From: Eledone cirrhosa | Taxonomy: Eukaryota | Assembly (NCBI GenBank): GCA_964016885.1 | Contig: OZ024753.1 | Span: 34,658,001 to 34,722,000 of the forward strand | Reading direction: 5' to 3' | Length of the DNA stretch: 64,000 nucleotides | Shown: positions 5,313-60,529 of the stretch, one piece after another | How positions within the stretch are numbered: position 1 is the stretch's first letter | How the letters are laid out: every line of letters starts with the position of its first letter | Made by a program: the position numbers and the translations under genes | The notes under the pieces: generated by a model | Told to the model about the DNA's origin: nothing | Seen by the model: the letters and a program-made list of their open reading frames with translations, nothing else | Databases searched by the model: none

Positions 5313-5651
5313 ACAGAGCTTATATTTAATTTGTTGGGATTCAACAAGCTTAAACATTTTTTTATAACTGATATAAAGCACTCAACAGGTAGTGGAGTAA
5401 ATATACAATATATTAACAAATGGAAACTATATTTATAAAACCATATTTATTTTATTATACATATTTCAAGGGCCACCAAGGCAAATTATGATGCGCTTTC
5501 ATCAGGATATGTCAACATTTATTTATAAAACTAATTCTGGATTGTATTTTATCTGAGGAAAGCGCACCATAATTTGCCTTGGTGGCCCATGAAATATGTA
5601 TAATAAAAAAAATATGGTTTTATAAATATAGTTCCCATTTGTTAATATATT
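5313..5651. mobile_element. Fold-back HHR element, family A copy 1
   Basis: Inverted arms about 5405-5510 and 5545-5651, tail 5313-5404, (AT)n on both sides. Confidence 0.8.
5545..5610 (+). ncRNA. Type I hammerhead ribozyme, family A (mirror copy about 5448-5510, minus)
   Basis: ttttat-CTGAGGA-imperfect helix II-GAAA-tatgta-TA-ataaaa. Confidence 0.65.
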
Positions 5652-5667
5652 GTATATATATATTTAA

Positions 5668-5776
5668 CAAAGAAAGTGTGGTAAGGAACCAAGTGACCCA
5701 TAACGCACCAGAGTACTCGATATTTAGGGTAGTAGAGTGGGCCGGAGCTCAGCCGTCGGGGTCCCGACTCTTTTCC
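5668..5776. mobile_element. Fold-back element, family B (short copy)
   Basis: Tail gtggtaaggaacc...gtagtagagtggg joined to the inverted arm gagctcagccgtcggggtc...ttcc, then (AT)n. Confidence 0.7.
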
Positions 5777-5795
5777 TATATATATATATATATAT

Positions 5796-5997
5796 GAAAC
5801 CACTTCCGGCCAGCATGGTATAGCGAGCCACATCGGACACTGGAATAGTTCCTTTATTTTCTCAGGAAGAAGAGATATTTATCTCGGAATATCAGGACAT
5901 GAATAAATTAAGGTAACAAACAAACCCTGTATCTTTCGATTTAATCCCTTCATCCAAACCTGCATTTTCGTGGCTTTCAAACTTCGAATTCCTTATG
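5796..5997 (+). mobile_element. Short element with degenerate HHR, family F (homologous to 30239-30350)
   Basis: gaagaagagat-attt-atctc-ggaatatcagg...ataaattaaggt...ttcaaact parallels the 30244-30350 sequence. Confidence 0.5.
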
Positions 5998-6307
5998 TGT
6001 ATATATATATATATATGTATATGTGTATGTGTATGTGTATATGTGTGTGTTATCTCTTTCTCTTAATTTCGAGTATATTTTTTTTGACTGGCCACCTTCC
6101 TGGAGGCAAGGTTGTGTATGTATGTATGTATGTATGTATGTATGTATGTATGTATGTATGTATGTATGTATGTGTGTATGTGCGTGTGTTTGTAAGTATG
6201 CAAAGATAAAATAAATCGCCAGACAATGTAAAGTCAGAGGGGAGACAGTTCAACGCTGCCATCATATATATATATATATATATATATATATATATATATA
6301 TATATAT

Positions 6308-6810
6308 GCAAAAGTTTTATATAAGATTGTTGGGTTACAACGAGTAAATATTTTATAACTGATATAAAAGCACTCAACAATTTCTGGAGTAGGTTTACGA
6401 TATTAAGCAGATGGAAACTATATTTATAAAACCATATTTATTTCGTTATATATATTTCAGGGATATCATATTAGAAATATGGTATGCCTTCTTCAGACAA
6501 AATACAATACATAAGCTGTTTTATAAATAATTTTTGACATACCTTATAAATAATGCAACTTCCATTTAAAAAGTTGATTTGGTAGTGAAACTGTTATGAC
6601 AGTTATATACAACAGTTTCACTACCAAATCAACTTTTTAAATGGAAGTTGCATTATTTATAAGGTATGTCAAAAATGATTTATAAAACAGCTTATGTATT
6701 GTATTTTGTCTGAGGAAGGCATACCATATTTCTAATATGATATCCCTGAAATATATATAACGAAATAAATATGGTTTTATAAATATAGTTTCCATTTGCT
6801 TAATATCGTA
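6308..6810. mobile_element. Fold-back HHR element, family A copy 2 (about 200-bp near-perfect palindromic arms)
   Basis: Arms about 6398-6595 and 6611-6809, tail 6308-6397, flanked by (AT)n. Confidence 0.88.
6702..6767 (+). ncRNA. Type I hammerhead ribozyme, family A (mirror copy 6439-6504, minus, core CTGAAGA)
   Basis: Helix I tattttgt/acgaaata, core CTGAGGA, helix II agg-cata-ccatat/atatga-tat-ccct, GAAA, palindromic helix III ATATATAT, AUA cleavage triplet. Confidence 0.78.
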
Positions 6811-56972: not shown

Positions 56973-57592
56973 GCATGAGTTAAAAGGGATGAAGTAATAC
57001 ACATTGATAGAAAGTGAGAGCGTTCGTCATGGCAACTGCAGAGGCTCTGAAGGAAAGGAAGAGAAGGAGAAAGAGTCCGTATGTGTATGTGGAAGGGGGG
57101 GGGGGTACAAATGGTAACTGGAATGAAAATAAACAGAGAAATAAAAGATAGAGTGAGAAGTGAGGCTATTGAATATATATACACTGATTAGTTTTTTTTC
57201 GTTGTTTTTGGTATTGTGTGACTAGGTTTACGTACCGCCATTTTAAATTGTTCAAGCTGTCTAAACGTATGTTATTACTCTGAGGCCTGCAACCTTATTG
57301 AGTGCTTTGCTACTCATTCCTAATTGTAGGTCGTTAGCTGGGCCGCAGCCAAAGCTTCGACTTGTATCATCAAAACATCCCTAACAAGCTCATATGTCCC
57401 AAGGCTCTGATACCATCAACACTATACACACAGAGCTGGCATATCTAAGAACTGACTAACTGCCTGATGCGGTCATAGCCATTCAATGGCTATCATCGAA
57501 ATATATATAACAGTAAATATAAATAAAGGATTATGAGTTCATGCAATTGGCTTATGTTTCGTCACTATAATATATATATATATATATATATA

Positions 57593-57998
57593 AGAATTAA
57601 AATACTAGAGTGTGTTGGAGTTGAACACCCTCTTCGTATTATAGAAATGGCAGTAAAGGTATAGCTCAATGTAATTAAACAGAGCCGAAGAATTATGAAA
57701 ATAAACCAAAGAAGCCTTCAATACATCAAAAGTCTTTATTAGCCAACAATGTTTCGTCCTATTAAGGACTCATCAGGGCAATTAAAGCTATAAGAAGCAC
57801 TATCGGCCAATACAAGCCAAAAACTCAGAAGAATATGGAGTGTACATAATGTATGTACACTCCATATTCTTCTGAGTTTTTGGCTTGTATTGGCCGATAG
57901 TGCTTCTTATAGCTTTAATTGCCCTGATGAGTCCTTAATAGGACGAAACATTGTTGGCTAATAAAGACTTTTGATGTATTGAAGGCTTCTTTTCATAA
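57593..57998. mobile_element. Fold-back HHR element, family D
   Basis: Arms about 57691-57848 and 57853-57998, tail 57593-57690, (AT)n flanks. Confidence 0.88.
57921..57958 (+). ncRNA. Type I HHR, family D (mirror copy 57742-57779, minus)
   Basis: gcc-CTGATGA-gtcc-ttaata-ggac-GAAAC-att-GTT-ggc. Confidence 0.9.
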
Positions 57999-58201
57999 TA
58001 TATATGTATATATATATATATATATATATATATGTATATATGTATATATATATGTATATATATATGTATATATATATATGTATATATATATGTATACATA
58101 TATATATACATATATATATATATATATACATATATATATACATATATATATACATATATATATATATATATACATATATATATGTATATATATATATATA
58201 T

Positions 58202-58598
58202 ATTGTTATACTTTGGGAGGGTCATGTTGCCAATAAGAAACACACGCACCAGTTGCTTTCACTTCAATTTATTATATATTTATAAATTTACAAATTTCTG
58301 GTTGGTTGGTTGGTTCCACAACCAGATAGTTGTTTATATATAGTCATAGTCACTGAAGAGGTCACAGAGTGTGTGACGAAAGGACTATGACTATATATAA
58401 ACAACTATCTGGTTGTGGAACCAACCAACCAACCAGAAATTTATAAATTTGTAGATTTGTAAATTTATAAATATATAATAAATTGAAGTGAAAGCAACTG
58501 GTGCGTGTGTTTCTTATTGGCAACATGACCCTCCCAAAGTATAACAATATCGGTTTCAACACACGATTTCAGATAAAGAATCTTGCTAAACAAATTCA
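58202..58598. mobile_element. Fold-back solo pLTR pair of the PLE at 35-37 kb (family C)
   Basis: 58349-58547 closely matches 37105-37297; 58202-58345 is its inverted copy. Confidence 0.92.
58346..58394 (+). ncRNA. Type I HHR, family C
   Basis: atagtca-CTGAAGA-g-gtcaca-gagtg-tgtgac-GAAAG-ga-CTA-tgactat. Confidence 0.85.
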
Positions 58599-58656
58599 TA
58601 TATACATATGTATATATATATATATATATATATATATATATTCATATGTATATATA

Positions 58657-60529
58657 TATATGTGAATATAGACATAGAATATTCGAAAATATTCTGTATG
58701 TTTATAATAAACATTTTGAAGACCTAATCGCTATAGAATAGAATACGTCACGTATTACAATTAGATTCTCGATAAAAGCAAGGGAAGTAATCTACGCGTT
58801 TCATTCTCGTTAGAAATCATCAGGACTACATATCCAGTGCTTTTATCGAGAATGACACAGCTAGAGACTTATAGAATACTTAGCTGTGTACAGGAACTGG
58901 TTTGAAAGAGCGGTTGCCGGTCCGGCAGAAATTAGAAATTGGAATAAATGCTCTGAAATAGCGATATATATGTGAATATAGACATAGAATATTCGAAAAT
59001 ATTCTGTATGTTTATAATAAACATTTTGAAGACCTAATCGCTATAGAATAGAATAAAAGATAAAATAGATAAAAGCACTGGATATGTAGTCCTGATGATT
59101 TCTAACGAGAATGAAACGCGTAGATTACTTCCCTTGCTTTTATCGAGAATCTAATTGTAATACGTGACGTATTCTATTCTATAGCGATTAGGTCTTCAAA
59201 ATGTTTATTATAAACATACAGAATATTTTCGAATATTCTATGTCTATATTCACATATATATCGCTATTTCAGAGCATTTATTCCAATTTCTAATTTCTGC
59301 CGGACCGGCAACCGCTCTTTCAAACCAGTTCCTGTACACAGCTAAGTATTCTATAAGTCTCTAGCTGTGTCATTCTCGATAAAAGCACTGGATATGTAGT
59401 CCTGATGATTTCTAACGAGAATGAAACGCGTAGATTACTTCCCTTGCTTTTATCGAGAATCTAATTGTAATACGTGACGTATTCTATTCTATAGCGATTA
59501 GGTCTTCAAAATGTTTATTATAAACATACAGAATATTTTCGAATATTCTATGTCTATATTCACATATATATCGCTATTTCAGAGCATTTATTCCAATTTC
59601 TAATTTCTGCCGGACCGGCAACCGCTCTTTCAAACCAGTTCCTGTACACAGCTAAGTATTCTATAAGTCTCTAGCTGTGTCATTCTCGATAAAAGCACTG
59701 GATATGTAGTCCTGATGATTTCTAACGAGAATGAAACGCGTAGATTACTTCCCTTGCTTTTATCGAGAATCTAATTGTAATACGTGACGTATTCTATTCT
59801 ATAGCGATTAGGTCTTCAAAATGTTTATTATAAACATACAGAATATTTTCGAATATTCTATGTCTATATTCACATATATATCGCTATTTCAGAGCATTTA
59901 TTCCAATTTCTAATTTCTGCCGGACCGGCAACCGCTCTTTCAAACCAGTTCCTGTACACAGCTAAGTATTCTATAAGTCTCTAGCTGTGTCATTCTCGAT
60001 AAAAGCACTGGATATGTAGTCCTGATGATTTCTAACGAGAATGAAACGCGTAGATTACTTCCCTTGCTTTTATCGAGAATCTAATTGTAATACGTGACGT
60101 ATTCTATTCTATAGCGATTAGGTCTTCAAAATGTTTATTATAAACATACAGAATATTTTCGAATATTCTATGTCTATATTCACATATATATCGCTATTTC
60201 AGAGCATTTATTCCAATTTCTAATTTCTGCCGGACCGGCAACCGCTCTTTCAAACCAGTTCCTGTACACAGCTAAGTATTCTATAAGTCTCTAGCTGTGT
60301 CATTCTCGATAAAAGCACTGGATATGTAGTCCTGATGATTTCTAACGAGAATGAAACGCGTAGATTACTTCCCTTGCTTTTATCGAGAATCTAATTGTAA
60401 TACGTGACGTATTCTATTCTATAGCGATTAGGTCTTCAAAATGTTTATTATAAACATACAGAATATTTTCGAATATTCTATGTCTATATTCACATATATA
60501 TCGCTATTTCAGAGCATTTATTCCAATTT
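58657..60529. mobile_element. Retrozyme-like array: 310-bp unit, about 4.7 copies (+, 59068-60529) preceded by about 1.3 inverted copies (58657-59055)
   Basis: aaaagcactg recurs at 59071, 59381, 59691, 60001 and 60311; one HHR per unit; (AT)n flanks. Confidence 0.9.
59396..59438 (+). ncRNA. Type I HHR of the 310-bp unit (also 59086, 59706, 60016, 60326 on plus; 58787-58829 on minus)
   Basis: gtagtc-CTGATGA-t-ttct-aacg-agaa-t-GAAAC-gc-GTA-gattac; helix I extended by the 16-bp pair attctcgataaaagca/tgcttttatcgagaat. Confidence 0.88.

Follow-up and report, generated by a model that had tools for sequence, protein, structure and literature searches.

What are the short inverted sequences that sit inside AT microsatellites of an octopus-type genome, and what machinery writes them there? 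The question is raised by a stretch of 64,000 nucleotides (nt) of Eledone cirrhosa DNA (GenBank assembly GCA_964016885.1, contig OZ024753.1, positions 34,658,001 to 34,722,000 of the forward strand), the whole of which is called the window here. The inserts are very short head-to-head inverted pieces sitting in (AT)n tracts, and most carry some form of the hammerhead ribozyme (HHR) motif. One family of them, family C, is by sequence comparison the ribozyme-bearing end of a retrotransposon in the same window, a Penelope-like element (PLE), and PLE machinery is very probably the origin of the inserts in general. The best explanation overall, held with moderate confidence, is that they are ends of PLEs or of retrozymes, extremely 5'-truncated, inverted and written by priming from both ends of the target.

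A shared layout in (AT)n tracts

The DNA is AT-rich for an animal (31% GC), and masking removed 17.2 kb of simple repeat from the window, leaving 46.8 kb unmasked. In the masked window, self-BLAST recovered the inverted arms at the places listed below. With arms and one-sided tails measured, the single layout claimed in a preliminary description of this DNA is confirmed and all 15 named elements are present, at the claimed density of 15 in 64 kb; about ten additional pieces were detected as well. Fold-back arms, also claimed, are general, except that the arms of G and B1 do not overlap. Across the inserts, arms measure 17-402 nt, spacers 0-114 nt and tails 35-115 nt.

5314..5660: A1, fold-back; tail-bearing arm on the minus strand, tail-less arm on the plus strand; imperfect HHR core in both arms; its 40-nt spacer is part of the tail-less arm and is 36/43 identical to native upstream sequence on the plus strand
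5664..5776: B1, inversion with non-overlapping arms; tail only on the minus strand, 37-nt first-end piece on the plus strand; no HHR core
6308..6808: A2, fold-back; arms of 200 nt (98.5% identical), each with a complete HHR (C3 at 6496, minus, and 6710, plus); tail of 88 nt
29235..29424: B2, fold-back; identical arms of 55 nt, tail of 77 nt; HHR represented by its 3' half only
30443..30713: E; inverted arm of 25 nt at the left, long arm on the plus strand with a degenerate HHR and a tail of about 100 nt
30751..31105: A3, fold-back; two identical arms of 119 nt, each with a complete HHR; tail of 82 nt; short duplicated stretches at the junction
31129..31310: F, fold-back; arms of 36 nt without a visible HHR, tail of 109 nt; (TC)n followed by (TA)n on the right
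32614..32887: A4, fold-back; 87-nt tail; junction within the HHR, 34-nt local repeat
39076..39274: B3, fold-back; tail of 78 nt, arms 91.9% identical; HHR represented by its 3' half
45250..45392: G, inversion whose arms do not overlap; minus-strand arm of 126 nt with a complete HHR, plus-strand tail end of 17 nt
49089..49299: B4, fold-back; identical arms of 58 nt, tail of 78 nt; HHR represented by its 3' half
53022..53441: J, fold-back; identical arms of 161 nt, spacer and tail of 49 nt each; inner ends of the arms carry a degenerate HHR-like motif
57593..57997: D, fold-back; identical arms of 141 nt, each with an HHR of canonical type; tail of 115 nt
58204..58597: C2, fold-back; 152-nt identical arms, HHR core as spacer, 47-nt tail; an ATG at 58525 opens a 24-codon frame reaching the tail end
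58654..60528: retrozyme-type array insert; 402-nt inverted arm (minus), 4.7 identical 310-nt units (plus); one HHR per unit, tail of about 35 nt

Both outer ends of every insert are 3' ends of the HHR-carrying strand and point outward. In family A the end sites are fixed in 4/4 copies, the short arm ending at one site and the long arm 82-88 nt beyond it; in the three full fold-backs of family B the long arm runs 77-78 nt past the short-arm end. The inner junction, frequently in or near the HHR, varies in position from copy to copy within these two families, as does arm length. Because junctions differ per copy while the outer ends stay fixed, the hairpin appears to be remade at each insertion. 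The two arms of an insert are identical in 8 of 13 cases (range 91.9-100%) and family copies are 86-97% identical to each other; since arms are more alike than copies, each insert would derive from one source.

A pure AT run of at least 10 nt lies within 10 nt of both ends in 13 of the 15 elements, a circular count, as the ends had been set at the tracts. The exceptions are F, which terminates in (TC)n, and C2, whose right tract is imperfect. The enrichment is borne out where ends were set independently of the tracts: 12 of 20 local inverted BLAST matches have an arm end within 15 nt of an AT run, a proximity shared by 2.9% of unmasked positions and by 2 of the 44 ends of short interspersed elements (SINEs). 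The eight matches off AT runs comprise three SINE pairs, another repeat pair, one match inside A4, F, H (listed below) and an isolated hairpin.

Hammerheads are likewise enriched, with 12 strict type I matches in the unmasked sequence compared to a mean of 0.015 and a maximum of 1 in 200 dinucleotide shuffles. Eleven fall inside named elements (array 6, A2 2, A3 2, G 1) and the twelfth in an AT-bounded island at 17911-18157. The statement that nearly all elements contain a full or partial HHR was too strong. By eye, a complete HHR is found in 7/15 (A1, imperfectly, A2, A3, C2, D, G and the array) and a partial or degenerate one in 6/15 (A4, B2, B3, B4 and those at 30443 and 53020), but B1 and the element at 31129 show no core in a loose core list. 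Family B, none of whose copies contains CUGANGA, has older relatives at 18196-18400 and 49400-49510 that likewise lack it. In family A, 4 of 16 stem pairs are changed on both sides and the covariation score is reached by 0/500 shuffles, with the structure drawn from the same five distinct but related rows that were scored. A search of Rfam at the gathering score returned zero matches; D reached 29.1 bits against RF00163 (E 1.4e-4), below the cut-off of 34, and in an E-value scan of the window the best 150 of 467 rows are all microRNA (miRNA) models, driven by simple repeats.

The HHR of family C resembles the minimal type I HHRs of PLEs in its extra base between 9 and 10.1, its G10.1-C11.1 pair and a tiny helix III, while A, G, D and the array share with them a short palindromic helix III and covarying families (PMC4209133). 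Features not shared with those ribozymes are, in A and G, an A-U at the bottom of a long helix II and, in B, a 5-bp helix III and the lack of the 5' core from every copy (PMC4209133). The families had been called largely unrelated, which does not hold for all of them: the A and G HHRs look alike by eye, H shares a tail stretch with B, and a fragment at 1453-1548 is C-like. Among the pieces beyond the 15 are the following.

34057..34194: H, new relative to the preliminary description; 17-nt arms, 104-nt B-like tail, partial HHR; (AT)n on the left, (GA)n on the right
43961..44136 (minus): G-family piece joining the G first end to a tail of about 99 nt; AT tracts on either side
17911..18157 (plus): AT-bounded island, previously unlisted; complete minimal HHR, C3 at 17956; no inverted arm

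The G tail end also stands alone as a 29-nt piece at 43755-43783 between AT tracts (34/34 with flanks).

Family C, the 310-nt array and their relatives

Three features of the window bear on family C; the first is missing from the preliminary description.

35023..36897 (plus): broken, 5'-truncated Penelope-like open reading frame (ORF) in four pieces; reverse transcriptase (RT), thumb, C-X4-CxxC linker, GIY-YIG with CCHH
37104..37301 (plus): 3' pseudo-long terminal repeat (pLTR) of this element, which is copy 1 of family C; its HHR core, at 37109, has an extra base following A9; ATG at 37276
1453..1548 (minus): fragment of a C-like first end, flanked by AT tracts; only two synonymous sites separate its ORF-start codons from those of C

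Profile matches in 35023-36897 come in the order RVT_1 (E 2e-4), then C-terminal GIY-YIG (E 5.8e-5), and the pieces are collinear with intact relatives, the frame being broken by frameshifts and a stop. A C-X4-C-X2-C linker precedes the GIY-YIG core, within which two Cys and two His are seen by eye. The best tblastn relative is a predicted Octopus vulgaris protein (57-73% identity over the four pieces); PLEs are known and recently active in that species (PMC13282606, PMC8967140), and the word "hammerhead" is absent from the main text of PMC13282606. Because both the C-X4-CxxC linker and CCHH are present, the element can be assigned to the C-terminal endonuclease-positive (EN+) PLEs of the Neptune/Nematis type, by the motif criteria of PMC8557442 and not by a tree. 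Membership of Naiad was ruled out by the C-terminal EN and the presence of an HHR, and membership of the Hydra clade by CCHH and a linker other than CxCX5C.

The HHR of copy 1 lies 212 nt past the stop of the Penelope-like ORF, and 37104-37301 is identical to C2 at 187 of 198 nt, the HHR core of C2 being at 58353. This match of C2 to an HHR region downstream of an RT/GIY-YIG element shows the PLE origin of family C. The short arm of the family stops at codon 7-8, and the tail at codon 24, of an open frame, so that the end and tail read as the start of an ORF and the description of all elements as non-coding does not hold for C. The pLTR and tail similarly run into the first codons of the ORF in Pen2a_Av, by 12 and 22 amino acids, compared with 7 and 24 codons in C (PMC3846280, PMC8557442).

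Six loci from metagenome contigs (L001-L006) are relatives in the same clade, with L002 and L006 uninformative for the 3' end. Where the 3' end is present, the loci keep the order seen in C: stop, HHR, ORF start, AT repeat. An ORF-start-like ATG lies downstream of the main ORF in four of the six. An HHR-like core stands 73 nt upstream of the ORF-start ATG in L001 and L004, and the core of L005 is in the same region; the beginning of the L001 contig itself repeats the downstream ORF-start sequence. In L003 (2575-2672) and L005 (1752-1800), otherwise unrelated contigs, (AT)n is reached about 7 codons into the ORF start, and L004 is interrupted about 24 codons in, which together match the two ends of C. 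The C peptide has a summed score of 111 against a top of 97 in the ranked window list, from which masking had removed it, with references picked afterwards. When 2913 ATG-started window peptides are compared with the L001 ORF start, the 24-codon frame comes first, but this comparison was chosen after L001 had been seen, which counts against it, as do several other results. The ORF-start similarity is weak alone (E 0.16 to P0019), 67 of 40468 window peptides score equally well, the peptide is not among the best 15 in a hidden Markov model (HMM) search with 11 sequences, and BLAST of the C ORF start to P0153 gave zero matches.

The 310-nt array is, judged from its repeats and ends, a retrozyme-type repeat carrying the PLE insertion signature. 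Its 4.7 units are 100% identical, an HHR is found in 5/5 plus-strand positions and in the inverted arm, and the monomer is predicted to be self-paired (z -3.9). In sequence terms, non-LTR retrozymes are tandem repeats whose units measure 170-400 nt and each contain a type I HHR; the array has this organization along with a self-paired monomer and, like HHR_Amex2, a U-U at the helix II base (PMC7229834). It differs from retrozymes in its inverted arm longer than one unit (402 nt), its tail and its AT flanks; the portions available of PMC7229834 and of a preprint (bioRxiv 10.64898/2026.07.22.740005) mention no inverted retrozyme inserts. As both arms of the array are longer than one unit, its template would have been multimeric or circular. 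Li et al. suggest local amplification from a pLTR, and the preprint links retrozymes to PLEs (bioRxiv 10.64898/2026.07.22.740005).

For the other families, the PLE origin proposed earlier for all of them is drawn from the two-end and tail signature shared with C: head-to-head inversion and a tail on one arm are present in families other than C as well. These families are likely to be ends of related elements or retrozymes, and the fold-back stubs are one PLE by-product pattern across several families, not a separate system. What speaks against this is that the search for a cognate RT-GIY-YIG master succeeded for C alone; queries from one clade found none in the window outside 35023-36897 for A, B, D, E, F, G, H, J or the array. 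The family B motif had 0 matches in the metagenome contigs. The same lack of a master ORF would suit self-standing non-autonomous elements (similar to SINEs or to miniature inverted-repeat transposable elements, MITEs, or retrozymes moved by, e.g., RTE) that are hairpin units favouring (AT)n, and an RTE-like RT ORF is indeed present at 20786-22651 and the families have high read depth. However, a self-standing hairpin does not explain why junction and arm length change in each copy while the outer ends stay fixed, nor why these families and C have the two-end signature in common, and this origin is very unlikely. Identity with a MITE or Foldback DNA transposon was ruled out by the one-sided tail and the different junction in every copy.

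Routes to an inverted insert

How inverted, tailed PLE insertions form is stated to be open (PMC8557442, PMC11167929). In vitro, a purified PLE protein for which a dimer is predicted cleaves both strands of AT-rich sites and extends them, starting at two RNA sites that define the tail on an uncleaved RNA template (PMC11167929). The reaction proposed below for the inserts resembles this PAc Poseidon system of Frangieh et al. (2024) in its use of both strands, an AT-rich target, two start sites that define the tail and uncleaved RNA. The inserts differ in their near-end AT patches and in the clade of C, with its CxxC linker, and inverted inserts are not connected to the reaction in the portion of that account available (PMC11167929).

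Double priming is probably the main route. In the proposed reaction, a PLE RT/GIY-YIG protein would cut both strands of an (AT)n tract. Priming would then take place from one target end at the far site and from the other at the near site, where a 2-8-nt AT patch would assist it, on a template RNA uncleaved at the HHR. Both complementary DNAs (cDNAs) would stop early, often at HHR hairpins, and the two short cDNAs would be joined head to head by microhomology, leaving most inserts dead on arrival. Carried out on retrozyme RNA in multimeric or circular form, this reaction would yield the array. Of 14 elements tried, 10 could be scored, and 9 of these have 2-8 nt of AT microhomology at the near end. 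In A1, B1 and G the tail-less arm includes sequence missing from the tail-bearing arm, which a cDNA copying itself cannot yield. B1 and G share the geometry of L1 twin priming, in which, as Ostertag and Kazazian reportedly described in 2001, the second target end primes internally at microhomology and an inversion results. Unlike in twin priming, the internal site here is fixed per family, most arms overlap and there is no poly(A). Two variants were rejected: a template dimer of two unrelated RNA copies, since arms are far more alike than family copies, and HHR cleavage as the point of 5' truncation, since most arms extend upstream of the cleavage site.

Some observations weigh against double priming. 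A1, B1 and G may have begun as ordinary fold-backs and had one arm partly deleted afterwards. Three 100%-identical inserts (A3, C2 and the array) allow the spacer to be assigned, and in all three it is part of the tail-bearing arm, which fits self-copying equally well. Initiation in vitro occurs without target homology, unlike the AT patches here (PMC11167929). Among the 15 of 1502 read joints listed, which are dominated by a SINE, there is neither a strand-change joint nor an empty site.

The chief rival keeps the PLE origin and has the nascent strand fold at a hairpin, often an HHR stem, and copy itself as far as the near site, with later deletions making the arms uneven; such self-priming on an antisense template was proposed in PMC3846280. 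It would account for near-identical arms, for junctions at native hairpins or palindromes (B2-B4, C2, A4, H and D) and for A3, C2 and the array, whose spacer is part of the tail-bearing arm. The centres of palindromes also tend to be deleted, as this route requires. On the other hand, A1, B1 and G would each need a further deletion of tail-arm sequence only, and the two pieces of G remain 16/16 and 21/21 identical to the other G copy; purified PLE protein, moreover, extends both target strands (PMC11167929). Self-priming is possible but unlikely as the general route. That errors of assembly or chimeric reads at AT tracts created the inversions is hardly credible. The identity of 8 of 13 arm pairs could suggest it, as could the fact that among the reads and contigs listed none spans a junction by 31 nt on each side. 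But it is made improbable by the diverged arms of A1 (94.6%) and B3 (91.9%) and by the family-specific end positions that independent copies share, with only one of the arms tailed, and the same structure has been described in other animals (PMC3846280).

Copy number, neighbouring repeats and significance

Reads from 4 of 23 runs were mapped to 28545-33740. The summed depth in run X1 is about 9 in single-copy bins, 2.3e6 at B2, 5.6e5 at A3, 4.4e4 at E, 6.7e3 at F and 9.2e6 at the SINE. Depth at A, B, E and F is roughly 10^3 to 10^5 times single-copy in contigs of the same organism, figures that indicate high copy number and are not copy numbers themselves. Pieces of A and B also occur in reads of two other organisms. 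Read ends pile up at 29365 and 32151, where AATT occurs in a restriction-site-associated DNA (RAD) library, and were discounted as restriction ends.

Other repeats share the window. A further family between AT tracts, at 32902-33476 and 31550-31599, has raised read depth; its 50-nt island at 31550-31599 is a tail-only copy of the 32902-33476 end (49/61), and an HHR-like remnant lies on the minus strand near 33165-33228. The minus strand of an AT-bounded island at 4081-4865 resembles by eye a decayed PLE endonuclease region, possibly Hydra-like, and a protein atlas search with the minus-strand ORF 4199-4522 gave no usable match. A perfect 71-nt inverted repeat at 8517-8732, of low complexity and centred on (AT)n, has the opposite geometry to the stubs and is possibly a local inverted duplication or an artefact. 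Small palindromes occur at 1562-1596 (35 nt, between AT tracts) and 38008-38057 (50 nt, without AT flanks). An RTE-like long interspersed element (LINE) ORF at 20329-22651 matches RVT_1 (E 2e-32) and, C-terminally, C2H2 zinc fingers. A SINE of about 200 nt is found at 22 loci (e.g., 11096-11294), in tandem at 18497-19081, and its head-to-tail joints are seen in reads as well. Three copies of a 400-600-nt repeat, 96-98% identical, lie within AT/AC microsatellite (24597-25193, 47374-47973 and 48452-48848), and the minus strand of a high-copy repeat at 7195-7357 and 28570-29000, adjoining (ATA)n or (AT)n, resembles by eye the 3' end of an L1/Tx1-type LINE.

The novelty first claimed for this density and layout is weaker than it seemed, since the inverted 5'-truncated copy, the tail, the HHR in the pLTR and the (TA)n bias have all been described (PMC8557442, PMC3846280, PMC4209133), as have retrozymes. 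The inserts share with canonical C-terminal EN+ PLE insertions the head-to-head inverted copy, the one-arm tail, the microsatellite bias and the RT-linker-GIY-YIG order (PMC3846280, PMC8557442). They differ in being mostly without an ORF, only 110-500 nt long and of many families in one window, with tails of up to 115 nt compared to the 30-40 nt described (PMC3846280, PMC8557442). No account of twin priming for PLE inversions, or of HHR stubs in octopus, was found in the literature searched, which covered few subscription journals. What is new is a dense example of a published pattern, its components being known, and the surprise to a PLE specialist would be moderate.

The case for a broader reading is evenly balanced. 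The stubs may document in nature the still unsolved final steps of Penelope integration, in which a dimeric RT-endonuclease would prime from both ends of a cut (AT)n tract at two fixed RNA sites and the cDNAs would be joined head to head, with no 5' end joined to the target. B1, G and A1 would then exclude self-priming, and the array would be direct genomic evidence for PLE enzymes inserting circular or multimeric retrozyme RNA, tying retrozymes to PLE integration through structure and not through co-occurrence. Stubs of this kind resemble miRNA hairpins or MITEs and would be mislabelled in annotation. If the reading is true, an octopus-type genome may hold tens of thousands of stubs or more, numbers that would allow start sites and stop points to be mapped statistically. 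With two fixed ends and variable junctions, counting inserts can separate double priming from self-priming.

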